The notes beneath the pieces are model-generated. The model was not told where the DNA came from and made no database searches. It saw nothing but the letters and a program-made list of their open reading frames with translations. Shown piece after piece: positions 3,265 through 42,924 of a stretch of 64,000 nucleotides of DNA. The stretch is from Deltaproteobacteria bacterium (lineage in GTDB: Bacteria > Desulfobacterota > Dissulfuribacteria > Dissulfuribacterales > DYLC01), in contig JAQVIJ010000004.1 of assembly GCA_028695735.1 (NCBI GenBank), positions 128,671 to 192,670 of the forward strand. Reading direction: 5' to 3'. The position numbers were made by a program, and so were the translations under genes. How positions within the stretch are numbered: the stretch's first letter is position 1; every line of letters begins with the position of its first letter.

Positions 3265-3383
3265 GATAACCCCCTTTGTTAGAAAGTGTTGCAAAATGCA
3301 ATACTCATACTGCGATTTATAAGGGGTTGTCAAGTGGTGAAACAGTAAAATTGCAATCTGTTTTAATTTGTAATCATAAAAAA

Positions 3384-3581
3384 TTAATTTTTAATCTGCT
3401 CTTCGCAAATAAATTTCTTGTTCAGGAATTCGCATTCCTTTGGTGTGAGGTCGAAGCGGGTTTCTGCCTCATATATGAGGGATGTGCGGGTCTTTTCAGG
3501 GTGTTCTTTGCACATATCTGATATCCAACGAATGGCGTTTCTGAGTTTTTCTCCGTGGGGCAGCAGTTCTTCTGTTGACAT
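3384..3581 (-). CDS. small conserved-looking hypothetical protein (65 aa)
   Basis: ATG is 4 nt after the kinase stop, and an AAGGAG RBS is embedded in the last kinase codons (gtctcAAAGGAGtgaaaagATG). No recognisable domain. Confidence 0.55.
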   Translation of the reverse strand: MSTEELLPHGEKLRNAIRWISDMCKEHPEKTRTSLIYEAETRFDLTPKECEFLNKKFICEEQIKN

Positions 3582-3585
3582 CTTT

Positions 3586-13254: not shown

Positions 13255-14892
13255 TCAGGTTATTACATCAGGTGCTGTCTTGTGCAGGGATTTGCGTAAA
13301 TCAAATACATGTTCCGTCCAGTTCACGAGGGCCTGAACAGCCTCTTGTGTGTGTAGGGACAGGTTGCCGTGAGGCGTTTCGTAGCGTTCCAGATACAGTC
13401 TGATGGTGACGCCCTGTGTGCCGGTGCCGGATGGCCGAAACACCACACGAGAGCCGTCTTCAAACACGATTCGAATGCCCTGCCGTTGTGTCATGCTGTG
13501 GTCCACCGGGTCCACGTAGGAAAAGTTGTCGGTTGTTTTCACCGCAAGGCCGAAGACGGTGTTGCCGTTCAGGGAGGGCAGGAGTTCCTCCGAGCGCTTC
13601 ATGAATGCCTGTGCCAGGCTGGTGTCCACCGCCTCATAGTCGTGTCTGGAGTAGTAGTTTCTGCCGAAGCGCCTCCAGTGTCCCTGCACCAGCTCCTTTA
13701 CAGACTTTCGTGTCACAGCCAGTATGTTGAGCCAGAACAAGGCGGCCCAGACCCCGTCTTTTTCCCGCACGTGATTAGAGCCTGTGCCGAAGCTCTCCTC
13801 TCCACACAGAGTGACCAGGTCTGCATCCAAGAGATTGCCAAAGAATTTCCAGCCCGTAGGGGTTTCAAAACAGGGGATGCCCAGTTGTTCAGCTACCTTG
13901 TCGGCGGCCTGGCTGGTGGGCATGGAGCGGGCAATGCCCTTGAGGCCCGCACGATAGCCCGGCGCCAGAGTGGCATTGGCCGCTAAAATGGCCAGGCTGT
14001 CGCTGGGCGTGACAAATATCTCCCTGCCCAATATCATGTTGCGGTCTCCATCGCCGTCAAAGGCAGCGGCAAAGTCAGGTGAGGAGGCGCTGTGTCCTTC
14101 CACTACGCTTTTCACCAGGCTGGCCGCATATTTCAGGTTTGGGTCGGGGTGTATGCCGCCGAAGTCTTCCAGGGGTATGCACCGCAGCAGCGTCTCTTCG
14201 CCCATGTTCAGCCTGTCTTGAAAGATGGCCTTGAGATACGGGCCTGTGGCCGCATTCATGGCATCCAAACGCAGTGAAAAGCCGTTTTCCAGCAGTTCCT
14301 TAATGCGTGCAAGGTCAAACAGGGCCTCCATGAGCTGCACATAGTCGTATATTCCATCAAACACATGAATCGTGCCTTGAAGGACCTGTGCCGTGCCCAT
14401 GGAATCCATGTCTATATCAGGGATGTCAGCTATTAAATAGTGCGTGATGTTGCGGGTTTTATAGTAAATGGAGTTGGTGACAGACTCAGGGGCGGGCCCG
14501 CCGTTTGCCGTGTTGAATTTTATGCCGAAGTCCTCGTCGATGCCCCCCGGATTGTGGCTGGCGGAAAGGATGATGCCGCCGGAGATGCCGTATTTCCTGA
14601 TGAAATGAGAGGCGGCAGGCGTGGAGAGCAGTCCGTTTTTTGCCACATGAATGTGTTCGATGCCGTTGGCCAGGGCCATTTTGATGATGGTCTGTATGGC
14701 TTTATGGTTGTAATACCTGCCGTCGCCCCCGATTACCAGGCTGTTGCCGCCGGTTTCTTTCAGCTCCAGTAGAATGGATTGCACGAAGTTTTCCAGGTAA
14801 TTTGGCTGCATGAAGACGCGAGTCCTTTTGCGCAGTCCGGATGTGCCAGGTTTTTGGTCGTCGAAAGGGGTGGTCTGTATGGTTTTAATCAT
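13255..14892 (-). CDS. pgm: phosphoglucomutase, alpha-D-glucose phosphate-specific
   Basis: TSGLRK, active-site SASHNPGG, metal loop FDGDGDRN and sugar loop GEESFG are all present; 545 aa. Confidence 0.92.
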   Translation of the reverse strand: MIKTIQTTPFDDQKPGTSGLRKRTRVFMQPNYLENFVQSILLELKETGGNSLVIGGDGRYYNHKAIQTIIKMALANGIEHIHVAKNGLLSTPAASHFIRKYGISGGIILSASHNPGGIDEDFGIKFNTANGGPAPESVTNSIYYKTRNITHYLIADIPDIDMDSMGTAQVLQGTIHVFDGIYDYVQLMEALFDLARIKELLENGFSLRLDAMNAATGPYLKAIFQDRLNMGEETLLRCIPLEDFGGIHPDPNLKYAASLVKSVVEGHSASSPDFAAAFDGDGDRNMILGREIFVTPSDSLAILAANATLAPGYRAGLKGIARSMPTSQAADKVAEQLGIPCFETPTGWKFFGNLLDADLVTLCGEESFGTGSNHVREKDGVWAALFWLNILAVTRKSVKELVQGHWRRFGRNYYSRHDYEAVDTSLAQAFMKRSEELLPSLNGNTVFGLAVKTTDNFSYVDPVDHSMTQRQGIRIVFEDGSRVVFRPSGTGTQGVTIRLYLERYETPHGNLSLHTQEAVQALVNWTEHVFDLRKSLHKTAPDVIT

Positions 14893-14958
14893 GGCTTGCC
14901 TCGCAATGTGTTGTGGATTATAGCATCGTTATGATGGCATTTGTATTGAAATATAAAT

Positions 14959-15090
14959 GGAACCTCGAAAAATTGCCTTTTTGCCCGATAACTGCGTTGC
15001 TCACGGCGAAAAATGCCCCTACTCCTGTCTGCGTGCAAGGCACAGGCAGGCAGGGAGTGAGTGGGAACATTCTAATTTTTCAGGGTTCCC
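14959..15090. repeat. MITE-like intergenic repeat, copy A
   Basis: Terminal inverted repeats GGAACCTCGAAAAATT ... AATTTTTCAGGGTTCC. Its internal blocks (gaaaaattgccNtttNgcNcgataactgcNttgctc and cacaggcaggcagg) are shared with copy C at 42963-43123. Confidence 0.6.
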
Positions 15091-15107
15091 TGTAATGTAA
15101 AACGGTA

Positions 15108-16694
15108 ATGGTTTATTTTTCAAGGAACCTTAAAGAATTTTTCAAAGGAATAAAAGAGGCGCCTGCAGAGAGATTCCCCATCTGGGCGGCTAATCTACTG
15201 TTTTTCTTTTTGCTTTTCTGCATGGTGCTGTCGTTTTTTTTCTATCAGATGGCAGCGGCCCGAAATGCCTTTTTGAAGGATGTGAATGCCCATGGCAGGC
15301 TGGTTGCAGAAGTGGTGAGCCTCAATGCGAGGGGCGCTGTCCTGGCTGGGGATGTAGTGGAAGAGGTATTCGGCCGTTTTTTGAGCAATACCGCCAGATT
15401 TATTGATTATCTTGACACGGTTCAGCCGTTTACAGCAGAGGAGTTGACAGCCTTTGCCAGGGAATCAGGTTTGGCCGGCATCAGAATAGTGCGTTCCAGC
15501 GGTGCGTCAGTGGAAGGGCCCGGCCATTGGACCGAGGGTCTGAATGCGTCGTGCGGCCGGACTCCGAGCCTCAATTATATGGCTGACAGGCACCTCACGG
15601 TTTTGACTATCACAGGTATGCACGCCGGCTGTATTGTTTTGGCGGTGGGCACCAGTCAGATAGATGCCATGCTTTCAGAGGTCGGGCTTAAAAAGACGTT
15701 GTCCAAGCTGTATCAAATCGAAGGGATTCGGTATGTCAGGCTGGAAGGCGCGCTGCTGGACGATTCGGTGTTTCGCGGCAGCCACGAAGATTTAATGAAC
15801 GAGCCATCGGATTTGGGGCACGTGGTGGAGGAGAGGGTGCCTCTTGAGACCGGCGGTTTGCTGGTAGTGGGGATAGACGCCACGCTTTTCCATGAGATGA
15901 CTCATAGATTGGTCAGGGATTTCACCATATTCAGTCTGCTACTTGCGCTCGTGGGTTCATTGCTGTCCTGGCTGTTATACGGCATGCAGAAGAGATATCT
16001 TCAGGCGGCCAGGACCTTTGAGCAGAGTCTCTCCGCCCAGAGGGAGGATGCTGCGCTGGGAAGGGCCACGGCGGCTATCGCCCATGAGATCAGGAACCCC
16101 TTGAACGCCATTGCCATGGCCATGCAGCGTCTGATCATGGAGGTGCAGGGGCTTTCCGGCGAGCACAGGAAATTGCTCGATGTATCCCTTTCCGCTGTGG
16201 GAAGGGCCAACAGGATTATCTCCTCGTTGCTGCACTATGCCCGGCCCATTCAAATGCAGAAAACGGAAATGGACCTCAAGGGTTTTATAGAGGACAGCCT
16301 GCAACCCTATCGCGGGCGGTTGGAGGAGCTTGGGATAACATTGCAACTGGAAATGGAAGATGGTCTGAGAGTCGGGGCTGATGTGAATCTTTTGGGGCAG
16401 GTTATGGACAATCTCATTAAAAATGCCATGGATGCCCAGCCGGAAGGCGGTTTTTTGCGCATAAGTGTTCATCGTGCAGACGGTGAGGCCAGGCTGTGCA
16501 TTCAGAATGCCGGCTGCGCCTTGTCCGAAGATGAGGTACAGCGCGTCTTTGAACCCTATTATACCACTCGAATTCAGGGCACAGGGCTTGGTCTTGCCAT
16601 CGTGAAGAGGATTATCTTTGTGCATGGAGGCAGGGTCGAGGCATTTGCGAAGGAAGGCGTTTTTGAGTTGGTCTGTTACCTGCCGCTTTTATGA
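15108..16694 (+). CDS. sensor histidine kinase (two TM segments flanking a periplasmic domain; NtrB/ZraS-like)
   Basis: H-box AAIAHEIRNPLNAI; N box LIKNAMDA; G boxes (..QGTGLGLAIVKRI..). Confidence 0.9.
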   Translation: MVYFSRNLKEFFKGIKEAPAERFPIWAANLLFFFLLFCMVLSFFFYQMAAARNAFLKDVNAHGRLVAEVVSLNARGAVLAGDVVEEVFGRFLSNTARFIDYLDTVQPFTAEELTAFARESGLAGIRIVRSSGASVEGPGHWTEGLNASCGRTPSLNYMADRHLTVLTITGMHAGCIVLAVGTSQIDAMLSEVGLKKTLSKLYQIEGIRYVRLEGALLDDSVFRGSHEDLMNEPSDLGHVVEERVPLETGGLLVVGIDATLFHEMTHRLVRDFTIFSLLLALVGSLLSWLLYGMQKRYLQAARTFEQSLSAQREDAALGRATAAIAHEIRNPLNAIAMAMQRLIMEVQGLSGEHRKLLDVSLSAVGRANRIISSLLHYARPIQMQKTEMDLKGFIEDSLQPYRGRLEELGITLQLEMEDGLRVGADVNLLGQVMDNLIKNAMDAQPEGGFLRISVHRADGEARLCIQNAGCALSEDEVQRVFEPYYTTRIQGTGLGLAIVKRIIFVHGGRVEAFAKEGVFELVCYLPLL

Positions 16695-16754
16695 ATTGCA
16701 TATCCGGAAGTTCAGCCGGAGGAGTTCCCTTTATAAAAAAGATGGAGTGAGACA

Positions 16755-18080
16755 ATGAATATACTCGTGGTGGATGACGAACAGGAACAGCTTGATATGC
16801 TTGCAGGTTTTTTGAAACATCAGGGTTATGAGGTTGTTACGGCCTGTGACGGTCAGGCTGCCCTGAGGATCGTGAAGGATTCGCCGGTGTCAGTGGTCTT
16901 ACTGGATCACAGAATGCCCGGAATGACCGGCGACGAGGTGTTGGAGCGCATAATGGCCATAAATCCCCTGATAAAGGCCATCATGATTACGGCCTATGGC
17001 GAGGTGGGTACGGCTGTACGCGTGATGCAGTTAGGGGCAGTGGACTTTCTGGAAAAGCCTGTGGACCTGAGCCTGCTTTTACAGAAGATACAGGAGATAG
17101 AGGGTGCGCTGGAGGTTGAACAGGATGTGCAGGAGGTGGTGGAGCAGGTAAGTGAATCAGGGCTTCCCATTCGTATGTCGGCCAAGAGCAGGGCCATGCA
17201 GGAGGTCATTTCCATGGCAAGGCGCGTGGCCCAAAGCCCATGGCCTGTGCTCATTCGAGGCGAGACAGGTACGGGTAAGGAGCTTATCGCAAGGCTCATT
17301 CACTCCTTGAGCCCACGGAGCCAGGGCCCGTTTATAGAGGTCAACTGTGCTGCGATTCCTGAAAATCTCTTTGAAAGTGAGTTGTTCGGCCATGAAAAAG
17401 GGGCGTTCACCGGCGCAATAAACCAGAGAAAGGGCCGTTTTGAATTGGCCAATGGCGGCTCCCTTTTTCTGGATGAGGTGGGTGAGTTGCCCCTGTTTTT
17501 ACAGCCCAAACTGCTTCGGGCCATTCAGGAAGGCCGTATTGCCCGAGTGGGAAGCGAGAAGGACATGGCCGTTGATATTCGCATCCTCTCCGCCACCAAC
17601 CGGAATCTCAAGGGAATGGCGGCTGATGGAAGGTTCAGGGAAGACCTGTATTATCGTTTGAATGTCCTGGAGATCGAGATTCCTCCGCTCAGGGAACGCA
17701 GGGAGGATATTCCGGCGCTGGTGGAATTTTTTCTGTCCAGATATGCCTCAAGGCCTGTTCAGATATCACCTGAGGCCATGGACCTGCTGGTCAAGTATTC
17801 CTATCCAGGTAATGTCCGGGAGCTGGAGCATGTGCTGCAGAGGGTGGTGACCATGAGTAGAGGAGGTGTAATCAGGCCCGTGGACCTGCCTGCTGAGTTG
17901 CGCAGCACTTCAGCGGAAATGAACGGTCCCCTTGTGCAGAGACTGGAGTTCATGGAACTGCAAATGATACGGGATGCCCTGGAACGGCATGACTGGGTGC
18001 AGACCAGGGCGGCTGAGGCCCTTGGCATCAGTGAGCGCGTGCTACGTTACAAGATGGCCAAGTATGGCATTAAAAAATGA
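16755..18080 (+). CDS. sigma-54-dependent response regulator (REC-AAA+-HTH, NtrC family)
   Basis: Intact receiver (VVDDE...LLDHRMPGM), Walker A GETGTGKE, GAFTGA loop (EKGAFTGA), and a C-terminal Fis-type HTH (..RAAEALGISERVLRYKMAKYGI). Confidence 0.92.
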   Translation: MNILVVDDEQEQLDMLAGFLKHQGYEVVTACDGQAALRIVKDSPVSVVLLDHRMPGMTGDEVLERIMAINPLIKAIMITAYGEVGTAVRVMQLGAVDFLEKPVDLSLLLQKIQEIEGALEVEQDVQEVVEQVSESGLPIRMSAKSRAMQEVISMARRVAQSPWPVLIRGETGTGKELIARLIHSLSPRSQGPFIEVNCAAIPENLFESELFGHEKGAFTGAINQRKGRFELANGGSLFLDEVGELPLFLQPKLLRAIQEGRIARVGSEKDMAVDIRILSATNRNLKGMAADGRFREDLYYRLNVLEIEIPPLRERREDIPALVEFFLSRYASRPVQISPEAMDLLVKYSYPGNVRELEHVLQRVVTMSRGGVIRPVDLPAELRSTSAEMNGPLVQRLEFMELQMIRDALERHDWVQTRAAEALGISERVLRYKMAKYGIKK

Positions 18081-18260
18081 GGTGTTTCAAAAAGAAACAA
18101 AACATCAGGAATTACAGGTGGTTAATGTTTTTATTTAAAGATTTTTTAATGGTATTTGTAAAAAAACATAGAAAAAAGGCATTGACGAGTCTGTCGCCAA
18201 GTGATAGATGTAACAATGAATCGCCATTCATAAAGTTCAAGAGAGGAGGGTTTAAATGGA

Positions 18261-19673
18261 ATGAATAAAGATTGTAGTTATTGGAGGTTGCGGCCTCTCG
18301 GTTGCGGGAGTCTGTTGTTTGCGACCCTTCTGACGGGTTGCTTGGTATCGTCCGCCTCGGCCATGGAGACATCCGCTGGTGAGGTGGACATCAGTTCCAC
18401 CACGCGTTATCAACTCCAATGGGCAGGCTCGCCCGACAAAAAACTCCTCCCCAACGAGACCAGCGACCAGGATTTTTCAGAGCTTCTGGGGGTTCAGTAC
18501 ACATCCTCCAAGATAGACGGCCTGTCCTTTTCGTTTTTGGGCAAGTATTCCAAGGACCTGGACGGCACGGCCGAGGGCTCTGTGTTTCAGGACTATCTGG
18601 ATGTGAGCAGCAATGAGCGTCAGCGTCTGGATGCCTATTATGCCTATGCCGAAAAGAGGGACATCGTGCCTGGGTTGGATATGCGTCTGGGCCGTCAGTA
18701 TGTCTATGGTGCGGAGGTGGTGCACTTCGACGGTCTGTGGATGAAGGCCGACAGGCTGCTGGACAATCGCTTTAGTGTGGAGGCCTTCGGCGGCCAGATT
18801 GTTCAGATGTATTCGGATCTCAACAAGAATGAAGTGGGTGGCATAAATGTGGGTTATTACCCCATGAAGGAGCTGGCCCTGTATCTGAACAGCGTTTTTT
18901 ATGTGGAAAACTCCTTTGAGGCACAGGCCTATTGGCGTCCCATGGAGTGGCTGAAGGTCAACGGCCGATGGGAGCTGTTAAATACTCGAAATCGGGAGGC
19001 CTCGTTTGATGTCATCGGTGATATACACGCCACAGATACCACGGTGGGCGTAAATGTCTTCAGGAGGTTCAAGATTGCCCAGCACACCCCTGAGGATTTC
19101 CTGTTCGACTATACCTCTTCTCTGGATACTATAAATAATATCAAGCGGTTGTATCTGTCACGGGAAGAGGCCTATACGCAGTACACCCTTTCTGTATCCC
19201 AGCCCATCCCCCATCAAAAGGGGCTGTCTGTATTCGTAAGAGGGACGGTGCGTGACCTGGATCACGACGATGCAGAGACCCTGTACACAACGGACTTTTA
19301 CAGCCTTACAGGCGGCATCAATGTGGATGAGTGGCTTGGTCTCAAGGGTTTCCATCTGAGTACCGGTGTCACCTGGTGGTGGGAGGACCGCAATCGCATG
19401 TATGAGGCTGAGTCCAGGTCCGTGTTTCTGGATGCACGTCAGGAATTGCCATATAAACTGGAGCTGTCAGGCGGCTTCTATTACAAGGATGAGGATGTGA
19501 ACTCCCTGATAGAAGGCGAAGGAGCAGCCCACTACTACGGTGCATTGAAATACAAGTTCGCCAAAGACAAGTGGACAGAGGTCAAATACGAATATGAACG
19601 GGATGATTATTATAAAGAGTTTGGAGTAGGGGATATCAATGTATTGACCCTGACACTCCATGCCAACTTTTAA
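18261..19673 (+). CDS. putative outer-membrane beta-barrel (porin-like) protein
   Basis: Signal peptide ending ASA. Aromatic/Gly-rich sequence with alternating hydrophobicity, and a C-terminal ..LTLTLHANF ending in Phe as in OM barrels. GAGGAGG RBS. It heads the cytochrome cluster. No family is recognisable by eye. Confidence 0.6.
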   Translation: MNKDCSYWRLRPLGCGSLLFATLLTGCLVSSASAMETSAGEVDISSTTRYQLQWAGSPDKKLLPNETSDQDFSELLGVQYTSSKIDGLSFSFLGKYSKDLDGTAEGSVFQDYLDVSSNERQRLDAYYAYAEKRDIVPGLDMRLGRQYVYGAEVVHFDGLWMKADRLLDNRFSVEAFGGQIVQMYSDLNKNEVGGINVGYYPMKELALYLNSVFYVENSFEAQAYWRPMEWLKVNGRWELLNTRNREASFDVIGDIHATDTTVGVNVFRRFKIAQHTPEDFLFDYTSSLDTINNIKRLYLSREEAYTQYTLSVSQPIPHQKGLSVFVRGTVRDLDHDDAETLYTTDFYSLTGGINVDEWLGLKGFHLSTGVTWWWEDRNRMYEAESRSVFLDARQELPYKLELSGGFYYKDEDVNSLIEGEGAAHYYGALKYKFAKDKWTEVKYEYERDDYYKEFGVGDINVLTLTLHANF

Positions 19674-19689
19674 TTGAGGGAGTGGAAAG

Positions 19690-20610
19690 ATGAAGATACA
19701 AATCTCGTATAAAATTATATTCGTATCCTTGGTGCTTGTGCTGGTTCTTGGAGTCTATGGATGTAAAAAGGAAGACACCAGCCTGAAATTTGATCACAAG
19801 CTGCATGTGATGGACAATTCCCTTTCGTGTGACAGCTGTCATGCCAAGGGCAAGGACGGCAAGCTCACAAACCCAGGCATGGACAAGTGCCAGGAGTGCC
19901 ATGAGATAGATATGGATCATCCTTCGGAGAAGTGTCTGCAGTGTCATTCTGTGAAGTCCGCTGCCAACGACTATAAAATCGAAGGGACTATCCCTGAGAA
20001 ACCCAAGGGTTACAGGGACTTGATCTTTAAGCATGAGGCCCATGAAGGGGTTGCCGAGTGCGGCACGTGTCATAAGGGTATCTGTGGGCAGAATTCCCTT
20101 TCTCAGATAGAGTGGCCTGATATGTTTGTGTGTAAGAAGTGCCACAACGGCAAGGATGTGCCCATAGATTGTGAGATGTGCCATACAGAGGTGAGAAAGG
20201 AGATCAAGCCGGAGAGCCACAATGGCGATTGGGCCATGCACCATGGTCTGGAGAGCCGCTTTGACAGGTCATGCCAGTTCTGTCATGACAACCAGGAGCG
20301 TTTCTGCCAGGATTGCCACAGGACGCAGAAGCCCAAGGATCACATTCTGAGCTGGAAGACCAGCGGCCATGGTGAGGAGGCCATGCACGACAGAAGGCTC
20401 TGCGCCACCTGCCATACCGCTGCCTACTGTTCTGACTGCCATCGCTCTCAAAAGCCCATCTCCCATGCCCGTGGCAACTGGATGGCCTATACCCGTGAAA
20501 ACGGCCATGCCGAAGAGGCGAAACGGAATTTCAGAAGCTGTAATGTGTGTCATACCACCTCTGAGTGTATGCAGTGTCATCAGACCATTGCACTCAGAAG
20601 GATGAAATAG
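19690..20610 (+). CDS. dodecaheme c-type cytochrome, lipoprotein
   Basis: Lipobox LGVYGC. Twelve CXXCH motifs in 306 aa: CDSCH, CQECH, CLQCH, CGTCH, CKKCH, CEMCH, CQFCH, CQDCH, CATCH, CSDCH, CNVCH, CMQCH. Confidence 0.9.
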   Translation: MKIQISYKIIFVSLVLVLVLGVYGCKKEDTSLKFDHKLHVMDNSLSCDSCHAKGKDGKLTNPGMDKCQECHEIDMDHPSEKCLQCHSVKSAANDYKIEGTIPEKPKGYRDLIFKHEAHEGVAECGTCHKGICGQNSLSQIEWPDMFVCKKCHNGKDVPIDCEMCHTEVRKEIKPESHNGDWAMHHGLESRFDRSCQFCHDNQERFCQDCHRTQKPKDHILSWKTSGHGEEAMHDRRLCATCHTAAYCSDCHRSQKPISHARGNWMAYTRENGHAEEAKRNFRSCNVCHTTSECMQCHQTIALRRMK

Positions 20611-20635
20611 AGATTAAATATCAGGAGGTGTGAAA

Positions 20636-23600
20636 GTGAAAGTTAAGGGTAAGAAGTATGTCTTGTTGGGGCTGTTGGCGGCTCTATTGCTGCCTGCCAT
20701 GGCCTCCGCCCATCCAGCGGTACAGCTGCTGGATGAACAGGGAAGGCCTATTAAGGACCAGTTGGATCCATCTGATACGGTCCAGGCCGCAAATGGTACG
20801 GTCTATATGAGAGGTCCTGCCTATAGTCCAAAGCAGACCTGTGGTAAATGCCATGATTATCAGGCAGTTACACGCGGCTATCACTTCCGTGAGGGCGCAG
20901 GCAGGAACGGTGAAGGGGTGGATGACCATTGGTCTGCCAAAAATAAAGACGGCAGTCTGTATCGCTATCTTGCCAACGCCTATGGCCACCTGCTGAGTCC
21001 TGGTCAGTTCGGCGCGTGGTGACCGCCTTCTTACCGCCAGTTGGCGGCTAAGAAGGAACGTGGTGGACTGAAGGACCCCTTCTCCTCAGAAGGTAAGAGG
21101 TATTTCTTTGATCAGGGCACGGCAGACCACATGGCTGTCTGTTACTCTTGTCACCCAGGCGGCGGGCCTGCAGAGGGTATTGTGCAGGCGGATGGTACGG
21201 TAAAACCCTATACAGACCCATCCCTCAAGCCAACACATACCTATGATCGTGATTTTTATGCCTATAGCGGCAATCTCACAACACAGACTCTGAACAGCCT
21301 GGCATCTATCGCTGAGACCATGCAGGCTATGGGAGACCCCAAGCCCCATGATTGGCACAAGTCAGGTGTGATGGAGGCGGACTGTATGCTCTGTCATACG
21401 GATCCACAGAGCCCTTATGCCCTGAAGGCCGCGGATGGTCTGAAGGCTCAGCCCTTTAAGCCACGCATGATGATCTTTGCTGATCGTCAGGGTGGCAAGG
21501 TGCAAAGTATCTCTTTGGGAATGCCGCTCAAGACCGGTTTGGCCAATGAATCGGCCCTTTCTTACACCAATGACCCACAGCGCATGTCCAGGCCAACCAA
21601 GCTCTTCGCATTGGCTCAACTGCCCAAGGAGGTTGTGGGCGAGATGATGCAGATGTGGGTGGATGCCCTGAAGAACATGGAAAAGCAGGGGGTAAGGCTG
21701 CCCTATGCCCTTTATGGCCAGAATGTGACCAAGATCTGGACACAAAACGGCATCAATCCGGCTTATTGCGCCAATCCGGCTGGAGCAGCGGACGAGATGA
21801 ACCGTCTGATGAACGCAGCCCCTGCCATCAACCAGTTGTTTTCTGGCATGATGAGCTACATGAAGTCAAAGGGCTTGATGCCTGCAAACGCCACCATGAA
21901 CGACATGATGGGCATGTTCTTCAATGACTTCATCTATGCCTATAAAATAAAGGACCAGATGGGCAATCTCTTGCCCATTCCTGTGCCCCTGCGCGCCTAT
22001 GAGCCAGGCAAGTTCTATACGGATTGGGATACCAATCATGCATCCCTTAGGGATTATATGCGGGCACCCCTCATAGAAGGCGAGGGTATCGCCTATTCCG
22101 GCAAGGTCGGTATGGGCTGGGGTGCTGCCATGTATGCCATTCAAAAGGCCATGCAGGGCGATATGCGTTATATGAATGCCGCTGGTATGCCTGATGTGGC
22201 GGCAGTGATGGCGGACATGCAGAAGGGTGTGGTGAAGCCTCAGGATATTCAGGTCACCCTGCATGATTTCCTGCCCAGCTTCTTCTATATGATGCCCACA
22301 GCAGAGCTCATGGGCCTGGATTTCAATCAGGACGGTGCGCCTATCTCTTATGTTCGCATAGACAGGGCTGGAAATGAGTGGCAGGCCAAGGCCTATTGGA
22401 ATGTGGCAGACCTGAAGGACGGTTATCTGAATATGTCCATGTTCGGCGGCCCTGACGACATAAACTCCTATAAATGGGTCAATGTCTGCGGTCAGTGTCA
22501 TGTAATGACCAAGGACCATGGAAACAGCGAGTGGAACTACGCCCGTACATACAACCTCGGTATGCCGGCGGACTGGGTCAAAAACGGTGTGTATGTGAAC
22601 TTCACCGATGATGAAGAGGCATCCGGTTATGATGTGCATCTTTCAGGTAAACATCTGGGTTGTGGTTCCTGTCATTTGAGGACAGCCGGAAACATTGAAG
22701 ATAAGCACAATTTCCTGAAGGGAACAGATACCGCCCACATGGTGGCCAATGAGTTGGACAACAACCCCAAGCCCAAGACCTGTGAGTATTGTCACCTGGC
22801 TGGTGGCAGCACGAGGGCACCCAATCCCACACGGGCACACGAGGAGAAGTTCGGCGAAAACACAGGCCGGCACATGGCCGAGATCACCTGTGAGGTCTGT
22901 CATATCCCCTACAGACGCACATGGAGATTCCGTACCTTCGATAATACCATGGGATATTACGGCAACTTCGACAACCGTATGGGCTATAATGTCCTGCCGG
23001 GTGGAGATGCCAGAATGGCAGCCTATCCTGCCGAATACGCCTTGCCACCTGTCTATGCCACATCCCCAGGTTACGGCATATCCCATTTCCACATGGCTGC
23101 CAATCACATAGATGCAGACGGTAAGGGTGTGGTGCCCATGGATTTTGTGGCCCAGATGGTGGATTACTTCAATATGAGCAGCTCTGCCGACCCAGGCAAG
23201 GTCGTAAATGGTATGCCCACAAATATGCAGTTCGACTTCTGGCACTATTTCTACCAGATGTTCCTGAACAACTATAAGGCCATGGGTGTGCCCATCAATT
23301 ACGACCCAGAGCATGACAACGAGTCGGTCGTTCCGCTTTATTACGCCAACTCCAAGAACGGCTATCCACAGATTGTAAGTGGCAACCCCATCACCATCTT
23401 TACATGGGTGGATGCCAATCCGGAGCCTGGTCATGACATGAGCGATATTGCTTATGGCGGAGCAAAGGTGCTGTATATACGTGAACTCAACGCGGCTATT
23501 CAGTCCTATATTCCGCCCATTGAGTTGGGCAAGGTGAGCCCCATGGACCTCGCCAAGATTCCGCCCAATGATCCGACATGGGCCAAAAACCCCTATGTGG

Positions 23601-24595
23601 GCAAGATCATTTTGAAAGACAGTGGTTATGTCATCTTCGATCACACCGGCGATATGTATCCTGAACTCTGGTGGGATGAGGATGTACGTGCCATGCAGCA
23701 GGCCCTGATAAAGGTGTTGAAGGCCGAGGGTGAGACAAATCCAATGCCCATGCTCTTCATGGCCGCTCACTACTTCTCGGATTCCCATGGTGTTCAGCCT
23801 GCGGAGAAGGCCCTGGGGGCCAAGTCCTGCTATGACTGCCATGGTGATTACACCAAGGACCCAGGTTCTCATCGCATCACTGACAAGGTGGTTGTGTATA
23901 TGCCTTGGGCCCCGCCATGGTTCAGGGATGAAAATCGCGCCATGAAGTATGATCCTGCAAAGGGCATGGTGCCAGCCAATCCAAACGGCTTCTTCATAGT
24001 GGATGGCGAGGTGGATTACATCAAGCCCATTCAGGCCAACGGCCTCGGCGTGCTGGGTGCACAGGCCAAGGATGTCCTTGCCCTAAGCAAACACCATGCA
24101 GAGGATCTCTTCTACATTACCAGTGAAGGTACGGTGCGTGGCAGTGATCTGGGCTATCTCTCTGACTTCACTTCAGAGGAATTGAGCACTGAGTATGCGA
24201 AACAGGTGGTGAACGGGCCGTGGTCAGACAAGCTCTACTTCTATATTCCCAAGGACTTGAAGGATGAGCTGTCCGAGTGCGGATTCCAGCCACAGAGCGA
24301 GCCTGTCCTGTTGAGCGGCGCTGGTATGGCTGAAGGCTATGTGTTGAGGCTTGGTTTGAATACAAGCGAGCGCAAGGCCATGGTGATATCCCTGCCGTTT
24401 ACGGGTGCTGCCCCGGAGATCTGGACAAAACAGCCGGGTGATGCAGGCTTTAGCAAGGATACCTCCGCTGTCATTCTGGACTACAACAGTGCCTATATCG
24501 TGGCGAAGGTCAACCATCCAGGCGAGTTCGTGTGCATTGACAGCACTCGAATCACAGGGGCCAACCTGGATCTTTGGAAGGCCTTTATGAAATAA
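20636..24595 (+). CDS. giant octaheme c-type cytochrome; single reading frame containing one in-frame TGA (21020-21022), candidate selenocysteine codon
   Basis: Track ORFs 20630-21022 and 21041-24595 are in the same frame, separated only by TGA plus 6 sense codons. Only the first has a signal peptide (..LLAALLLPAMASA/HPA). The second starts at a TTG with no RBS and no signal peptide, yet carries 7 CXXCH motifs (CYSCH, CMLCH, CGQCH, CGSCH, CEYCH, CEVCH, CYDCH), with CGKCH upstream. Start preferred at GTG 20636, 7 nt after AGGAGG. That this DNA is coding is near-certain; the fusion via recoding is the uncertain part. Confidence 0.65.
21026..21056 (+). promoter_or_regulatory. SECIS-like mRNA hairpin 3 nt downstream of the in-frame UGA
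   Basis: CCTTCTTACCGCC-AGTT-GGCGG(C)TAAGAAGG forms a 13-bp stem with one bulged C and a 4-nt loop containing GU. The upper 5-bp stem starts 11 nt after the UGA. There is no T-tract, so it does not look like a terminator. Confidence 0.5.
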
Positions 24596-24656
24596 CCTGT
24601 TAGAGACAGACAGGGGCGAAATTCACCCCTGTCTGTTCCTGTTTAATTCGTGTTTA

Positions 24657-24697
24657 AACAAGAAAAGCGCCTAAATTAGGCGCTTTTCTTGTTTTTT
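24657..24697 (+). terminator. rho-independent terminator of the cytochrome operon (usable from both strands)
   Basis: Perfect 15-bp stem aacaagaaaagcgcc / ggcgcttttcttgtt with a 7-nt loop, followed by TTTT. A second hairpin lies at 24606-24636 (acagacagggg / cccctgtctgt). It sits between convergent genes. Confidence 0.75.
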
Positions 24698-24751
24698 AAG
24701 GATGTGAAACACTTCCAACTATCTTTTGGGTGTTGCCATAAGACTGTGCCA

Positions 24752-25442: not shown

Positions 25443-25520
25443 TGGCGTCCCCGACGGGATTTGAACCCGTGTCGCAAGCGTGAAAGGCTTGTGTCCTGGA
25501 CCTGGCTAGACGACGGGGAC
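25443..25520 (-). tRNA. tRNA-Glu (anticodon UUC), CCA encoded
   Basis: Reverse complement GTCCCCGTCGTCTAGCCAGGTCCAGGACACAAGCCTTTCACGCTTGCGACACGGGTTCAAATCCCGTCGGGGACGCCA folds as a cloverleaf. The anticodon loop is CTTTCAC. It aligns closely with the canonical bacterial tRNA-Glu layout. Confidence 0.9.
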
Positions 25521-25535
25521 GCTTGTATAAAATTG

Positions 25536-25610
25536 TGGTGGGCCGTGCTGGGATCGAACCAGCGACTCTCTGCTTAAAAGGCAGATACTCTACCTCTGAG
25601 TTAACGGCCC
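25536..25610 (-). tRNA. tRNA-Lys (anticodon UUU), CCA encoded
   Basis: Reverse complement GGGCCGTTAACTCAGAGGTAGAGTATCTGCCTTTTAAGCAGAGAGTCGCTGGTTCGATCCCAGCACGGCCCACCA. The anticodon stem is TCTGC/GCAGA with loop CTTTTAA. Confidence 0.92.
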
Positions 25611-29807: not shown

Positions 29808-29869
29808 TTAAGAAACCCCCCAAGAGATCCTTGAGGATTAATTTTACAAATGCGGCAGGTGAAATCAAT

Positions 29870-32800
29870 ATGGTGCTTGAATCCGATGCCTTGCGTCAGA
29901 ATCTGCGTGAAACAGCCGTCAATTATGTCTTGATCGATGCCCGCTATGACAATCTGCTGGAGGCATTGCGAGCCTATCAGGGGGTTTTCAAAACAGCGGA
30001 ACACCTTGTCTATGAACTCCATCACCCTTTTGTGAACTGGGGGGTCTTTATAGATGAATTGCGCTCGTTTTCCCTGAAGAATCTGCCTGTCATCAGCAGA
30101 ACGCCTTGCGCCGACCAGGCCCTTGCCGTAATGCTCGAACTTTTCCATGACACCATTGTCAGGGCCCCCAAACAGCACCAGAAGCTGCTTGTACTCGATG
30201 GACTGCTGGCCTTTTACGAAAAACTCGGTTCCTCACTGGAACCCACTCTGCTGCATAAAATGATGTCAGCCCTGCAACAGAGTGTTTCCCGCTTGAGTGA
30301 GTTGGAAGAACCGCTTTTGATGGGAGTCGTCCGCAGTCTGTATCCCTTGCAGCGCACAGCCGGCGTCTTGCTGTCAAGGGTTGCGCCTGGCTTTGAAGAC
30401 CATGGTTTGTGGCAGGCATTGTTGTCTCTGCTTGTGCGTGTTCAGGAATTGTCCCTGGGTTATTGGATGCAATTGGATGACCCATTTGAATGGTTCGAAC
30501 GTACTATAAAGCAGTACGGGGTCTTTTTGCCCGATTCTCTGCTTGAAGAGGTCAGAAAACTGCTGCAACCCATTTCTAGGATGCGTATGCAGCAGGAATT
30601 GTCAAAGGTGGATGAAATACGGAAACGCTGTCTCACCCGGCTTTCGCCCCAGGCCGGCCATAAGCCTTCCGACGGGGCGCCGTCCGCAATCTCATGCCTT
30701 CAGGAGGCGCTTGCCGTTGTTTCGCATCTGGAGATAGTCAAGGCATACAGGACGGTGGCCCAGTCTTTTGGCGAGCATTACTGTACCCTTCAGGGATCAG
30801 CGGCTTCCGGATATGGAGAAAAAAACCCTGAGATAGACCTGCATATACTTTTCCTTTTTCACATGGTGGAGATCGACGCCCTTTCCACGATTCATGAGGA
30901 TGTGCTCCGGAATATCAACAAAAGACTGCTGTGCCTGGTGCGTACGGCTCAAATAGAACAGCTAAACGATATATTGCCGCGCGCCTTCCGTTTGCTCAAG
31001 CAGCAGATCGGAAACTTTCCTCAGACAGCCCTGCAGTGCATCGAGGCCCTGGGCGGTGAGATATCCAGGCTGAACAACGAAGGGCTGCTGGAGCTTTTTC
31101 TGGAGCAGGTGGTGGAGTTCGGCTTTCAAACCCCTGATATTCATGGAGTGGATGCCGAGTGGCATGTGCTTTCCAACCCGGCGCATCTTCAGAATATTCG
31201 TGTGTGGCTCAAGCTCATAAGGCAGAATCCGAAGGTGTTCAGCACGCTGCTCTCAGCCCTGATAGTGAATATATCCCTGGCGGGCACCTGCATAAAGGAC
31301 ACCGACCTCTTTCAGAAGGATGTCACACAGCTCTTGAATGCGGATATAGAGCCGGTCTATGCCTTGGTCAAACAGTTCACCAAGCTGCTGCCGGTTTATT
31401 TCAACGAGATAGGCGCAGAAGGTCTTTTGAGGGATGTCTCCACGGAACTGGATGAACTGACCCTGCGCCAGGACAGACTCATACATTTTCTGCGCAAACA
31501 GGCCCATGTGGAGAGTCACAATCTCATAGTGGATTTTATCGGTTCCATCCTGCATTTCTGGCATACAGGGGATAAATCCGTCCTGAAACCATGGGTGCCG
31601 GATGTGGTGCTGGAGGGTGTGACTGCGTCCGGTGAATTTTTCGATGAGGTGCATACGATCATCGCAAGACTGGCGGAAAGCTGTCCGCTGACAAGACCCC
31701 GAAACAGCGCGGATGTGCTGGAGAGCCTCTGCGACCTCTCTGAGACCCGTGTATCAGGGCTTCTGGAGGGTATGACAGATGTATCGGAGAGGGAGAAAAA
31801 GAGGGTTTGGCTGCTTTTCAAGATGTATCGCCTGGAGGTTTTGAAATACAGATTGGGTGTGCAGGAACTGGCAGGACATCTGAAGGAGGCCAGGGACTGG
31901 GGGTTCAACGGGCTGGACCGTGTCATAGAGATGCTTGAGCAGAACGGGCAAACGGCGGCCAATGACTCAGGCGCATTCAGCACTGGTCCTGCGGAACTGG
32001 AGGGCCGTTTGCAGATACTGCTTGAGACCCTGGAATGGCTTCAGACCATCATATTGAGCCGGCAGCAATTCGAGATTCGCGAGGATATCTACTACAAAAG
32101 GCACATTGCCGTGGATATTCCGTCCATGTACGGAAAATATCATGAAAAGAAGTTTGACGCCCTGAGCCTGAGTTTTCGTCTGGAAAATCTGGCCCAGACA
32201 TATTTCGAGTCCATGGTGGAGGACCTGGAGCTCACATTTGTCACGCGGGCACTTTTTGTAAAGATTGTGAGATATCTGAAGTTGTGTTACAGGGCGGTTC
32301 GTCTGAACGGCGTGCGGTCCCGTGGTTTCGAGTCCCATTTGACCTTGCTGGAACAGTCCCTTGAGATAAGGCGATTCAGCTTTTCGCAATATCTGGACAT
32401 CGTCAGAGGGCTGTCGGAAGGGGTCAAGGAGATGATTCATGTGCATTACATCAGCCCTCATCAGGACAATCTCGCCCGTGTCCTGAAACAATTGGGGGAG
32501 GAAGGTCTTTCTGTAAAATATCGTAACTCCTTTGGCCCGGAGACCGGTGAACTGCTTCCGCGAGTGTCCGAGCGTTTTTACAGGGACCTCATAGCCACCA
32601 CCTTCGGTATGCAGGTGCTGGATCGTTTTGTATCCCGGCTCTATCAGGTCATGGGCGAGCAAAAAGAGCGATTGAGTCAGAGGGAGCTGGACCTGCTGTT
32701 GAGTTACGATATGGAGCGGGTCTTGTGTCCCATACGCAACCCAAATCCTCAGACCAAAAACCTGATTTATCTCGGCAACAAAGGCTTTAATCTCGTGAAA

Positions 32801-34252
32801 TTGGCCGAAGAAGGGCTGGCTGTTCCGGCCGGGGTCATAGCGACCACCGAACTTTTCCGCTGCTATTCGGTGTTTCAGGCCTTTCCAAGGGTTTATGAGG
32901 ACTTTCAGGCGCAGTTGCGTGCGGCCATAGCGGATATGGAAAGACAGACCGGCAAACGATTCGGAGACAGCACCAACCCGTTACTGCTGTCCGTACGAAG
33001 CGGCGCCGCCATTTCCATGCCCGGTATGATGGCTACCATCATAAACGTGGGTATGAATCAGGGGATAGCCGAGGGACTTGCCGTATCCTCGCAAAACAGC
33101 TGGTTTGCCTGGGATAATTACCGCCGTTTTCTGCAATCATGGGGCATGGCATTCGGTATGGAGCGGGAGATATTTACTGAACTCATGATACATCACAAAA
33201 AGCTGTATGGAGTCAGCAAGAAACGGGAGTTTTCCGGAGATGCCATGCGGGAACTGGCGTTGTTATACAGAGAGGCGGTATTGTCTCATGGTATGGAGGT
33301 GGAGGACGATCCCTTCGAGCAGCTGCTGGTGTCCATTCGTCTGGTGCTCGGCTCCTGGGATTCCGCCAAGGCGAAGGCCTACAGGGCTATCATGGAGATA
33401 TCGGACTACTGGGGGACCGCTGTCATAATGCAGGCCATGGCATTCGGCAATATTTCGGAAAATTCAGGGACAGGGGTGGTATTTACCGCCAATCCAGCCA
33501 AAAAATTGGACAGGGTTTCCTTGTGGGGGGATTTTACGCCTGGGAATCAGGGCGAGGACATAGTGAGCGGCCTGGTGCTGACATATCCAATCTCCAGAGA
33601 ACAGAAGGCCGTGCGGGGAATAAATGGCGAGGTGACGCTGGAAGAGACCTTCCCTGAGATATATGCGGAACTCTCCGGCATCGCCAGCCGGCTCATCTAC
33701 GAAAAGAAGTGGAGCCCGCAGGAGATAGAATTCACCTTTGAGGGCCCGAGCCGCGAGCAATTATACATCCTTCAGACTCGAAACATGGCCATCAAAAAAC
33801 ACGATATGGTCAATATATTCGTGCCGGGAAGGTCGCTGGATGCGAATTATCTGGCCAGAGGTATCGGTGTGAGCGGCGGCGCATTGTCCGGAAAGGCGGT
33901 TTTCTGCCTGCGTGACATCGAAAGTTTCAGGTCTGAGGAGCCGGATACACCGCTGATCCTCATACGTTCTGATACTGTGCCGGAGGATATCCGTGAAATA
34001 TCATTGGCTGACGGAATCCTGACTGCGAGAGGCGGACAGACATCCCATGCCTCCATCGTGGCCTTCAGGCTTGACAAGGTCTGCGTGGTGGGCTGTAAAC
34101 AACTGAAGGTCTATGAGGACAAAGGGCTTGCAAAGATAAATGAATTGGATATACATACAGGGGATTACATCAGTATCGACGGCAGATTGGGTATGGTATA
34201 TTGGGGCAAACATAAGGTGCAGCGTGAAAAGCGTATCATATCGGTGCAATAG
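29870..34252 (+). CDS. giant PPDK-like protein: about 960-aa uncharacterised N-terminal region + PPDK-type ATP-grasp + phosphohistidine swivel domain; no PEP/pyruvate TIM-barrel domain
   Basis: The C-terminal 500 aa align by eye to pyruvate phosphate dikinase: LLLSVRSGAAISMPGMMATIINVGMN, WGTAVIMQAMAFGN..SGTGVVFTANP, QGEDIVSG, IEFTFE...LYILQTRN, and TARGGQTSHASIVAFRL with the catalytic His codon at 34044-34046. The ORF stops about 70 aa after that His. ATG 29870 (AGGTGA RBS) is preferred over TTG 29831. Confidence 0.85.
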   Translation: MVLESDALRQNLRETAVNYVLIDARYDNLLEALRAYQGVFKTAEHLVYELHHPFVNWGVFIDELRSFSLKNLPVISRTPCADQALAVMLELFHDTIVRAPKQHQKLLVLDGLLAFYEKLGSSLEPTLLHKMMSALQQSVSRLSELEEPLLMGVVRSLYPLQRTAGVLLSRVAPGFEDHGLWQALLSLLVRVQELSLGYWMQLDDPFEWFERTIKQYGVFLPDSLLEEVRKLLQPISRMRMQQELSKVDEIRKRCLTRLSPQAGHKPSDGAPSAISCLQEALAVVSHLEIVKAYRTVAQSFGEHYCTLQGSAASGYGEKNPEIDLHILFLFHMVEIDALSTIHEDVLRNINKRLLCLVRTAQIEQLNDILPRAFRLLKQQIGNFPQTALQCIEALGGEISRLNNEGLLELFLEQVVEFGFQTPDIHGVDAEWHVLSNPAHLQNIRVWLKLIRQNPKVFSTLLSALIVNISLAGTCIKDTDLFQKDVTQLLNADIEPVYALVKQFTKLLPVYFNEIGAEGLLRDVSTELDELTLRQDRLIHFLRKQAHVESHNLIVDFIGSILHFWHTGDKSVLKPWVPDVVLEGVTASGEFFDEVHTIIARLAESCPLTRPRNSADVLESLCDLSETRVSGLLEGMTDVSEREKKRVWLLFKMYRLEVLKYRLGVQELAGHLKEARDWGFNGLDRVIEMLEQNGQTAANDSGAFSTGPAELEGRLQILLETLEWLQTIILSRQQFEIREDIYYKRHIAVDIPSMYGKYHEKKFDALSLSFRLENLAQTYFESMVEDLELTFVTRALFVKIVRYLKLCYRAVRLNGVRSRGFESHLTLLEQSLEIRRFSFSQYLDIVRGLSEGVKEMIHVHYISPHQDNLARVLKQLGEEGLSVKYRNSFGPETGELLPRVSERFYRDLIATTFGMQVLDRFVSRLYQVMGEQKERLSQRELDLLLSYDMERVLCPIRNPNPQTKNLIYLGNKGFNLVKLAEEGLAVPAGVIATTELFRCYSVFQAFPRVYEDFQAQLRAAIADMERQTGKRFGDSTNPLLLSVRSGAAISMPGMMATIINVGMNQGIAEGLAVSSQNSWFAWDNYRRFLQSWGMAFGMEREIFTELMIHHKKLYGVSKKREFSGDAMRELALLYREAVLSHGMEVEDDPFEQLLVSIRLVLGSWDSAKAKAYRAIMEISDYWGTAVIMQAMAFGNISENSGTGVVFTANPAKKLDRVSLWGDFTPGNQGEDIVSGLVLTYPISREQKAVRGINGEVTLEETFPEIYAELSGIASRLIYEKKWSPQEIEFTFEGPSREQLYILQTRNMAIKKHDMVNIFVPGRSLDANYLARGIGVSGGALSGKAVFCLRDIESFRSEEPDTPLILIRSDTVPEDIREISLADGILTARGGQTSHASIVAFRLDKVCVVGCKQLKVYEDKGLAKINELDIHTGDYISIDGRLGMVYWGKHKVQREKRIISVQ

Positions 34253-38242: not shown

Positions 38243-38360
38243 CTCATGCGGAATACCTATTCATACATCCAAGTCCCATAAGTGTCTCTGTTTCGAGATC
38301 CGATTGTGGAATCTGGGATAACAGAATCTCTTGGCACTTCTTTTGCAAAAACTTCTATCG

Positions 38361-42545: not shown

Positions 42546-42924
42546 TATGGCATGAGACGGCATAAGCCGGGTTCTGTCCCCTTTACAGAGTGACGGTCAT
42601 TCATCTTGCATGAAGGTCGCCCTTCATGTCACGCGACCAACCCGAAGGCGCGAGGGAAAACCCTCTTTGGCCGGGCCGGCCTCAAACACCTTCCTATGCG
42701 GTCTTGCTTCAGGTGGGGTTTTCCGTGCCCGCGTTGTCACCAACGCGGCGGTGAGCTCTTACCTCGCCTTTTCACCCTTACCGCCCAGAAAGGGCGGCGG
42801 TATATTTTCTGTGGCACTTTCCCTGGGGTCGCCCCCGATTCGCGTTACGAATCACCTTGCCCTATGAAGCCCGGACTTTCCTCTGACTCAAAAGAATCAG
42901 CGACCGTCGCCGTCTCTTGCCATA
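42546..42924 (-). ncRNA. rnpB: RNase P RNA, bacterial type A
   Basis: On the minus strand: universally conserved GAGGAAAGTCCGGGC (42883-42869), ACAGAACCCGGCTTA (42577-42563), plus GGGTGAAA, GGTAAGAGC and AGCAAGACC blocks. P1/P2 closure: 5' TATGGCA-A-GAGACGGC pairs with 3' GCCGTCTC-A-TGCCATA, followed by TTTTT. About 379 nt. End points are good to within about 5 nt. Confidence 0.88.

Follow-up and report, generated by a model that had tools for sequence, protein, structure and literature searches.

A candidate envelope redox operon encoding an outer-membrane barrel, a 12-heme lipoprotein and a giant octaheme selenoprotein in Desulfobacterota

The locus described here lies within a 64,000-nucleotide stretch of contig JAQVIJ010000004.1 (assembly GCA_028695735.1; hereafter the window) from a Deltaproteobacteria bacterium of the Dissulfuribacterales, and comprises three genes on one strand (18261–24595) that encode envelope proteins rich in c-type hemes. 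The first codes for a predicted outer-membrane β-barrel of 470 aa (18261–19673), the second for a 306 aa lipoprotein cytochrome with 12 CXXCH heme-binding motifs (19690–20610), and the third frame (20630–24595) for a far larger product with eight. The intergenic gaps are 16 and 19 nt, each with a Shine-Dalgarno-like GGGAG or AGGAGG inside it, and the trio is closed by a bidirectional intrinsic terminator (24656–24697) consisting of an 18-bp perfect hairpin followed by a T-run (U6 in the transcript). The interval that includes it (24596–24710) folds at -55.7 kcal/mol (z = -9.5 relative to shuffled sequences). The close-packed, co-directional genes and the strong terminator had both been described in a first-pass annotation of this DNA, and both are confirmed. 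We conclude that 18261–24595 is a single operon for an envelope redox module of barrel, 12-heme lipoprotein and octaheme selenoprotein. The earlier observation was real yet incomplete, in that an in-frame TGA in the third frame went unreported.

This TGA (21020–21022, + strand) is codon 131 of the third frame. It divides the gene into open reading frames (ORFs) of 130 aa and 1184 aa in the ORF list and of 128 aa and 1137 aa in public gene calls. A protein of roughly 1320 aa with eight CXXCH had been reported from the first reading; the eight motifs are indeed present in 20630–24595, but the frame is not open, and a single 1321 aa protein results only if the in-frame UGA is recoded. The region was compared among 68 related loci taken from species-representative genomes, which with the window give 69 places. 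Matches to the N-terminal and C-terminal parts lie exactly one codon apart in every locus with both halves, and the junction codon is TGA in 57 of 61 loci, TGT or TGC in two (L053 and L054, the two most divergent relatives), CTG in two (L046 and L056), and never TAA or TAG. As a control, true stops were tallied for the barrel, 12-heme and giant genes of these loci: 127 of 137 are TAA or TAG, and the other 10 are TGA. The motif around the codon, GQ[FY]GAW-U-PPSYRQ[LV]AAK (U being residue 131), ranks among the best-conserved stretches of the protein, and conservation of the protein sequence also extends from the TGA to the supposed TTG start of the downstream part.

A predicted hairpin resembling bacterial selenocysteine insertion sequence (SECIS) elements begins 3 nt after the TGA (21026–21056, + strand) and reads CCUUCUUACCGCC-AGUU-GGCGG(c)UAAGAAGG; the loop has the sequence AGUU or AGGU and is placed 16 nt downstream of the UGA codon. 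All five pairs of the upper stem CCGCC/GGCGG are retained in each of the 57 TGA loci, the sole variation being four changes of C-G to U-G, and the third positions of the stem-forming Tyr, Gln and first Ala codons are invariant in these loci while adjacent third positions vary. One lower-stem pair alternates between C-G and U-A in eight distinct sequences, a compensatory pattern with a covariation score exceeding that of all 500 shuffles. The four loci without TGA encode the same amino acids with other codons, and there the stem is broken. No SECIS family of Rfam was matched at the gathering score, the only Rfam matches being to RNase P RNA and tRNAs.

The public gene calls and RefSeq all annotate the gene as split, as would be expected if the TGA were a true stop separating a 130 aa monoheme protein from an 1184 aa protein, or if the gene were a decaying pseudogene. 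We regard this as highly improbable. The break is exactly one codon and always TGA, whereas TAA and TAG account for 93% of true stops in these loci; Cys occupies the junction in some orthologues; the residues that follow the TGA are conserved as far as the supposed TTG start; and the SECIS-like hairpin is present. Moreover, the downstream 1190 aa part lacks a signal peptide despite its seven CXXCH motifs, the upstream part invariably starts with one of the signal peptidase I (SPase-I) type, and one homologue with Leu at the junction (P0073) is a single unbroken polypeptide across it. The conserved codon, the rarity of TGA stops, the constrained hairpin, the Cys orthologues and the lack of an export signal on the C-terminal part together argue strongly for selenocysteine (Sec), and with high confidence the gene is predicted to make a single exported octaheme selenoprotein of 1321 aa in which UGA-131 is read as Sec. 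None of selA, selB, selC (tRNA-Sec) and selD is found within the 64-kb window, and no other convincing in-frame TGA gene, as a sign of Sec use, was seen there. Separately, the proteome of Dissulfuribacter thermophilus has an FdhA-like entry (DITHS69_2496) with a size described as 'not in line' (PMC13490349), a weak hint of Sec use; it may be another selenoprotein split at a UGA, which would indicate Sec use in the genus.

The giant protein has an SPase-I signal peptide at its N-terminus only and no lipobox, and its mature form starts HPAVQLLD. Most homologues likewise show His-Pro at this mature N-terminus (20708–20731 in the window), in the form HP[AP]V[QT]L[LY]D. A His at the very N-terminus is the defining mark of histidine-brace copper sites and might also be a heme ligand. 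All eight CXXCH motifs are invariant, and among 48 full-length sequences there is no invariant Cys beyond them.

Relatives of known structure were not found for this protein. A phmmer search of the Protein Data Bank (PDB) with the full sequence returned no chain at E <= 10, and profiles of the C-terminal part and of the Sec-containing N-terminal part found no relative there, the best E-value of the PDB searches being 0.17. An AlphaFold model of the C-terminal part (predicted local distance difference test, pLDDT, 77; predicted template-modelling score, pTM, 0.79; heme regions at low confidence) gave no Foldseek match to the PDB at E <= 0.001 over its 1190 aa, and the top matches – GAIN domains and carbohydrate-binding modules – are noise. 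Membership of a known octaheme enzyme family, an outcome raised in the first-pass annotation, is not borne out: the NCBIfam model for the OTR family (TIGR04315, cut-off 375) gives a weak local match, which spans about 100 residues and scores 30.7 bits. The giant shares eight c-type hemes and a presumed catalytic role with the octaheme enzymes (OTR, MccA and the HAO family), but is about three times larger and has neither a PDB sequence match nor a fold match of its C-terminal part.

This is a small family: 1.84 billion representative sequences searched with its profile gave 197 matches. Only 20 of them reach E <= 1e-30, and the distant ones cover heme-binding stretches only. A single metagenome-assembled genome (MAG) can carry Sec-type, Cys-type (1771–2334 aa) and Leu-type (19 hemes) copies, and paralogues stand alongside the Sec-type copy in MAGs JALWJV01 and WGBG01. 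Leu-type proteins (L046 and L056) have Leu at the Sec position and an 11-heme N-terminal extension, giving 1910 aa and 19 hemes, and Cys-type proteins (L053 and L054) combine Cys with a very long C-terminal extension, up to 2334 aa in total. That the Leu-type extension might be a fused copy of the 12-heme gene was considered and rejected, the BLASTP alignments (E = 0.004) being driven by CXXCH motifs. As judged from sequence, this is a hitherto unannotated family of predicted large multiheme selenoproteins with a barrel and heme wire of their own.

The 306 aa product of the middle gene (19690–20610, + strand) is the putative wire. Its description as a lipoprotein with 12 CXXCH holds, and the lipobox (...[GAS]C-K) is kept in 42 of 42 homologues. 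The first half consists of c7-type domains (Pfam Cytochrome_C7) and the second of three CXXCH doublets, closely paired. Its best PDB match is the 318 aa cytochrome 3ov0 (E = 4e-9), which we take to be the Geobacter dodecaheme GSU1996. The two are alike in packing 12 hemes into about 300 aa with c7-type domains, but the protein described here is a lipoprotein, only its first half aligns, and its second half has the paired doublets. TIGR04257 scores 25.4 bits, below its cut-off of 40, and the NCBIfam ExtM model (NF040943) gives no match, with a cytochrome near the cassette in Dissulfurimicrobium hydrothermale serving as positive control at 218 bits. The main text of the D. thermophilus proteome paper (PMC13490349) makes no mention of the orthologue from that organism (A0A1B9F7A6).

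The first gene (18261–19673, + strand) encodes a protein with a signal peptide and a C-terminal Phe, as first noted, and its homologues have SPase-I signal peptides and, in nearly all, a C-terminal F, W or Y. The proposal that it forms an outer-membrane barrel is upheld by modelling: AlphaFold (AF2, with 44 homologues) predicts an all-beta protein (pLDDT 82.3, pTM 0.74) with 22 DSSP strands, and Foldseek matches it to outer-membrane barrels only – MOMP, the FimD usher, Occ porins and AlgE – with TM-scores of 0.4–0.5. MtrB is absent from the best 50 of these matches. There is no match in Pfam or NCBIfam at E <= 0.01, and a profile of the family finds nothing in the PDB. The suggested check against the MtrB/PioB families is therefore negative, and PF11854 does detect an MtrB-like protein neighbouring the cassette in L040 (38 bits); by these searches the barrel is not MtrB/PioB. 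Of its more distant relatives, one of 38% identity again stands in a trio and one of 27% identity lies directly upstream of a different pair of multiheme cytochrome genes.

The barrel, 12-heme lipoprotein and selenoprotein genes keep this order in 42 of the 69 places, with unrelated flanks, which answers positively the question of whether the trio co-occurs in related genomes. Roughly 16 of the remaining loci end too soon upstream for the trio to be read, and about ten have upstream DNA in which the selenoprotein stands alone, without a barrel. The flanks vary by lineage and include otsBA (trehalose synthesis), mreBCD-pbp2-rodA, a 2-oxoacid:ferredoxin oxidoreductase (OFOR) and an Hsp70/AAA set. 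As these clusters differ between lineages, their candidacy as functional partners was rejected. Nearly all source records are MAGs of Desulfobacterota – Dissulfuribacterales (94% identity to the window), Desulfobulbales, Thermodesulfobacteria and Desulfuromonadaceae – and many are hydrothermal or sulfidic, going by record names. The full cassette with its TGA is also present in two cultured sulfur disproportionators, D. hydrothermale Sh68T (CP085041.1) and D. thermophilus S69T (MAGO01000004.1). Both have the giant gene annotated as split, and the 1188 aa part in D. hydrothermale is a 'cytochrome c3 family protein' in RefSeq. This species is reported to grow solely by disproportionating inorganic sulfur compounds, and its genome paper does not discuss the cassette (PMC8780430).

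Several neighbourhoods have genes of possible functional relevance. In D. hydrothermale (locus L076), a YedE-like transporter, TusA and three small ORFs (2680–5183), together resembling a YTD cluster, lie upstream of the cassette with a PilC/GspF gene in between, the YedE/TusA pair resting on weak YedE/YedF-type matches; downstream (15686–17044) is the ExtM-like multiheme cytochrome, for which the 218 bits compare with a cut-off of 800. A stand-alone selenoprotein copy in locus L014 (369–9423) follows genes for a 4Fe-4S subunit, an NrfD/PsrC membrane subunit and a molybdopterin oxidoreductase with a twin-arginine translocation (TAT) signal, a PsrABC-like set, and is also preceded by a rhodanese lipoprotein and two porin-like ORFs without Pfam match; this arrangement resembles Psr/Sud and ExtH/ExtI. 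In three loci (L024, L040 at 13882–16824, and L049) a 10-heme MtrA-like cytochrome (Paired_CXXCH_1) is encoded downstream of the cassette, and in L040 and L024 an MtrB/PioB-family barrel follows it, as checked with PF11854 in L040. Some genomes therefore appear, from these gene assignments, to place a classical conduit beside the new cassette.

The closest parallel to the giant is MccSep/ExtKL of Geobacter sulfurreducens (GSU2937-2936, within extHIJKLMNOPQS), described in August 2026 as a 450 aa, five-heme periplasmic selenoprotein and a polysulfide reductase essential for S0 respiration (PMC13510729). It had long been taken as part of a Geobacter 'conduit' before this periplasmic polysulfide reductase activity was shown (PMC13510729). 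Both proteins are multiheme with a single Sec specified by an in-frame UGA and a SECIS-like hairpin, both genes are split in two by public annotation, and in both Pro follows the Sec (DG-U-P in MccSep, AW-U-PP in the giant). Moreover, a porin-like barrel gene adjoins each (ExtI for MccSep; PMC5877670), a 12-heme cytochrome (ExtM) is encoded in the same cluster, and the hosts are sulfur-reducing or sulfur-disproportionating Desulfobacterota (PMC13510729, PMC5877670). The differences are also clear: MccSep has 450 aa and five hemes and the giant 1321 aa and eight; the Sec of MccSep is near its C-terminus (residue 325, in a D-G-U-P loop beside a His/Cys-ligated heme; PMC13510729), and that of the giant is near its N-terminus (residue 131); the NCBIfam ExtKL model does not match the giant; and unlike the MccSep/ExtKL setting, the window has no rhodanese or ExtJ gene. 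A review of May 2026 lists as cytochrome selenoproteins ExtKL, the GSU2204 family and OTR-type octahemes; among these, a match to the giant came from the OTR model alone, far below its cut-off. The giant follows the general plan of MccSep, yet the two are not detectably related in sequence.

The parallel with MccSep also raises the question of whether the cassette serves reduction and uptake of selenite, tellurite or another oxyanion, with the barrel importing the substrate and the Sec-heme enzyme reducing it, by analogy with the ExtI/ExtKL phenotype. Reduction of selenite and tellurite suffered when ExtI was lost (PMC5877670), selenite is a substrate of MccSep in vitro (PMC13510729), and in D. 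hydrothermale the cassette has an ExtM-like cytochrome and the weak YedE/TusA pair nearby. Selenite, however, is the poorer substrate of MccSep and polysulfide the physiological one (PMC13510729), the habitats and hosts are dominated by sulfur, and the Ext family models pick up none of the cassette proteins, so that we think this role quite unlikely.

More substantial is the comparison with trans-outer-membrane electron conduits, the role proposed in the first-pass annotation. As in MtrCAB of Shewanella and the related PioAB and MtoAB, the cassette combines a barrel, a small heme-dense cytochrome and a large cytochrome, and OmaB-OmbB-OmcB of Geobacter resembles it in composition, having a periplasmic-type 8-heme protein, a porin-like barrel and a 12-heme lipoprotein. 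The claim that its sizes and heme counts match no known conduit is nonetheless upheld, as none of the families compared fits. MtrB has 26 strands in about 700 aa, but the cassette barrel has about 22 in 470 aa and no PF11854 match; the small cytochrome differs from MtrA in being a 12-heme lipoprotein without the Paired_CXXCH_1 match found in the MtrA-like neighbour in L040; and the giant differs from MtrC and OmcA, lipoproteins whose ten hemes are arranged in two pentaheme domains (II and IV), in its eight hemes, its SPase-I signal instead of a lipobox, its Sec, its large non-heme domains and its one marginal stretch of similarity to MtrC/MtrF. Relative to the Geobacter porin-cytochromes (OmaB-OmbB-OmcB, ExtABCD and ExtEFG) the sizes are inverted, the 12-heme protein here being small (306 aa) and the 8-heme one huge; gene order differs, Sec is present here, and Pfam and NCBIfam scans show no similarity.

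A classical conduit to insoluble metals, electrodes or partner cells, in which the barrel would insulate the 12-heme protein, the giant would be an MtrC/OmcA-like surface terminal reductase and the Sec would be peripheral, is accordingly a possible reading but a less probable one than the sulfur chemistry considered below. The large barrel of about 22 strands, the multiheme lipoprotein and the large cytochrome fit its pattern. The model for domain II/IV of MtrC/MtrF (PF22113) matches the central four-heme region of the giant, although marginally (30.4 bits, cut-off 30), and matches the homologue P0058 at 43.9 bits. Some homologues have Lcl_C and MopE-type domains at the C-terminus, modules typical of surface proteins, and the distant relatives of the barrel are likewise encoded upstream of cytochrome genes. 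However, the giant has no lipobox, MtrB/PioB models do not match the barrel, and about ten loci with upstream DNA have the giant and no barrel. An invariant and costly Sec in the top-conserved motif argues for catalysis rather than electron transfer alone, and the cultured hosts disproportionate sulfur, D. hydrothermale solely so (PMC8780430). The architecture proposed at first – barrel, heme lipoprotein and large cytochrome – is partly right, and the trio recurs in 42 of 69 places, whereas the emphasis on a conduit function is probably wrong in light of the Sec and the sulfur hosts.

We lean instead, by analogy, towards a Sec/heme enzyme for sulfur or polysulfide that is associated with the outer membrane and fed by the 12-heme lipoprotein (a chalcogen reductase or 'sulfur activase'), a reading that takes in the operon and the UGA recoding. 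Given hosts that are sulfur disproportionators and the contents of some gene neighbourhoods, the giant probably has sulfur, not metals, as its substrate. The 12-heme lipoprotein would be a short wire that carries electrons from the periplasmic pool to the eight hemes of the giant. Sec131 would be the catalytic nucleophile, and the chalcogen compound that it attacks would most likely be zero-valent sulfur or polysulfide; this action is modelled on the unrelated Sec/heme polysulfide reductase MccSep. The barrel could have either of two roles: it may form a sheath around the 12-heme protein and thereby let electrons out to an enzyme exposed at the surface, following porin-cytochrome logic, or it may let the sulfur substrate in to a periplasmic enzyme, following ExtI/ExtKL logic. 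The sulfur-enzyme and trans-membrane-conduit readings are compatible. A form that unites them, with the giant on the cell surface, wired through the barrel by the 12-heme lipoprotein, and a selenolate that opens insoluble S8 or attacks polysulfide outside the cell, is rather unlikely in our estimate; within that form, and with no partner Cys conserved, the Sec could engage a heme directly and perhaps serve as its axial ligand.

Several observations weigh against the sulfur-enzyme reading. There is no detectable homology between the giant and MccSep, either by phmmer or with the two profiles searched against the PDB (in which 9wt8 and 9wt9 were present), and the heme-ligating Cys of MccSep (C239) has no invariant counterpart in the giant. 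Sulfur-related neighbours are found in only two loci (D. hydrothermale and L014), most flanks being housekeeping genes, and the MtrA/MtrB-like genes next to the cassette in L024, L040 and L049, together with the MtrC-like heme domain, fit transfer to metals or electrodes equally well. The localisation of the barrel, 12-heme protein and giant is predicted.

In a literature search, MccSep (August 2026) was the sole member found of a class of Sec-plus-heme chalcogen enzymes. The giant would be a second and evolutionarily independent family, three times larger and with a different Sec context, which would suggest that Sec-plus-heme chalcogen chemistry arose more than once. How these disproportionators make the initial attack on insoluble S0 is explicitly unknown (PMC8780430), and a cassette with its own barrel and heme wire is a testable candidate for this first step, in cultivable hosts. 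It also touches on the coupling of sulfur chemistry across the outer membrane, left open by the authors of the MccSep study (PMC13510729). An annotation gap is evident too, in that all public records examined split the giant gene.

The cassette is preceded on the same strand by genes for a sensor histidine kinase (15108–16694; Pfam HisKA and HATPase_c, with weak AtoS/ZraS-type NCBIfam matches) and an NtrC-type sigma-54 enhancer-binding response regulator (16755–18080; Response_reg, Sigma54_activat, AAA_lid_14 and HTH_8). The kinase has, as read from its sequence, two predicted membrane segments around a periplasmic region of about 220 aa. These assignments agree with the first-pass annotation, but its description of the pair as dedicated to the cassette lacks support. 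The interval upstream of the barrel gene (18081–18260) has neither GG-N10-GC nor TGGCAC-N5-TTGC at <=3 mismatches, and of the related loci only L001 and L004, the closest two, have the pair beside the cassette, so that dedicated sigma-54 control is unsupported. In six other loci the gene immediately before the barrel encodes a different protein, a fused kinase-receiver of about 720 aa, and the remaining loci have no such gene in that place. The same interval does hold a sigma-70-like promoter candidate (18182–18210, + strand; TTGACG, 17 nt, TGaTAGATG) in a block conserved in the window, L001 and L004, which a consensus promoter scan did not report. Between it and the ribosome-binding site is a palindrome, ATGAAT-N4-ATTCAT (18216–18231), a candidate operator since its half-sites are identical in these three closest loci. 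An inverted repeat, TGTTTC-N5-GAAACA (18083–18099), lies just past the regulator stop.

Two further sigma-54-like sites were seen in the window. One (14935–14950, + strand; TGGCATTTGTATTGAA), with two mismatches, precedes the histidine kinase start by about 160 nt. A functional site here could mean autoregulation of the kinase/regulator pair, perhaps with read-through into the cassette. The other (38332–38347, + strand; TGGCACTTCTTTTGCA) is the sole perfect sigma-54 consensus in the window and lies about 150 nt upstream of a 450 aa ORF (38485–39837) without NCBIfam match, which is followed by a 569 aa ORF with a local match resembling the LIC10067 lipoprotein. This site could be a real target of a sigma-54 activator like that encoded at 16755–18080.

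Elsewhere in the window, a 1473 aa ORF (29831–34252, + strand), conserved in L001 and L004, has a C-terminal part that resembles phosphoenolpyruvate (PEP)-utilising enzymes, recognised by eye from a GGQTSHASIV motif; the long N-terminal region ahead of it was not placed by eye. The class A RNase P RNA and neighbouring tRNA-Glu and tRNA-Lys genes (42547–42919 and 25443–25610, both on the - strand) are ordinary housekeeping features.

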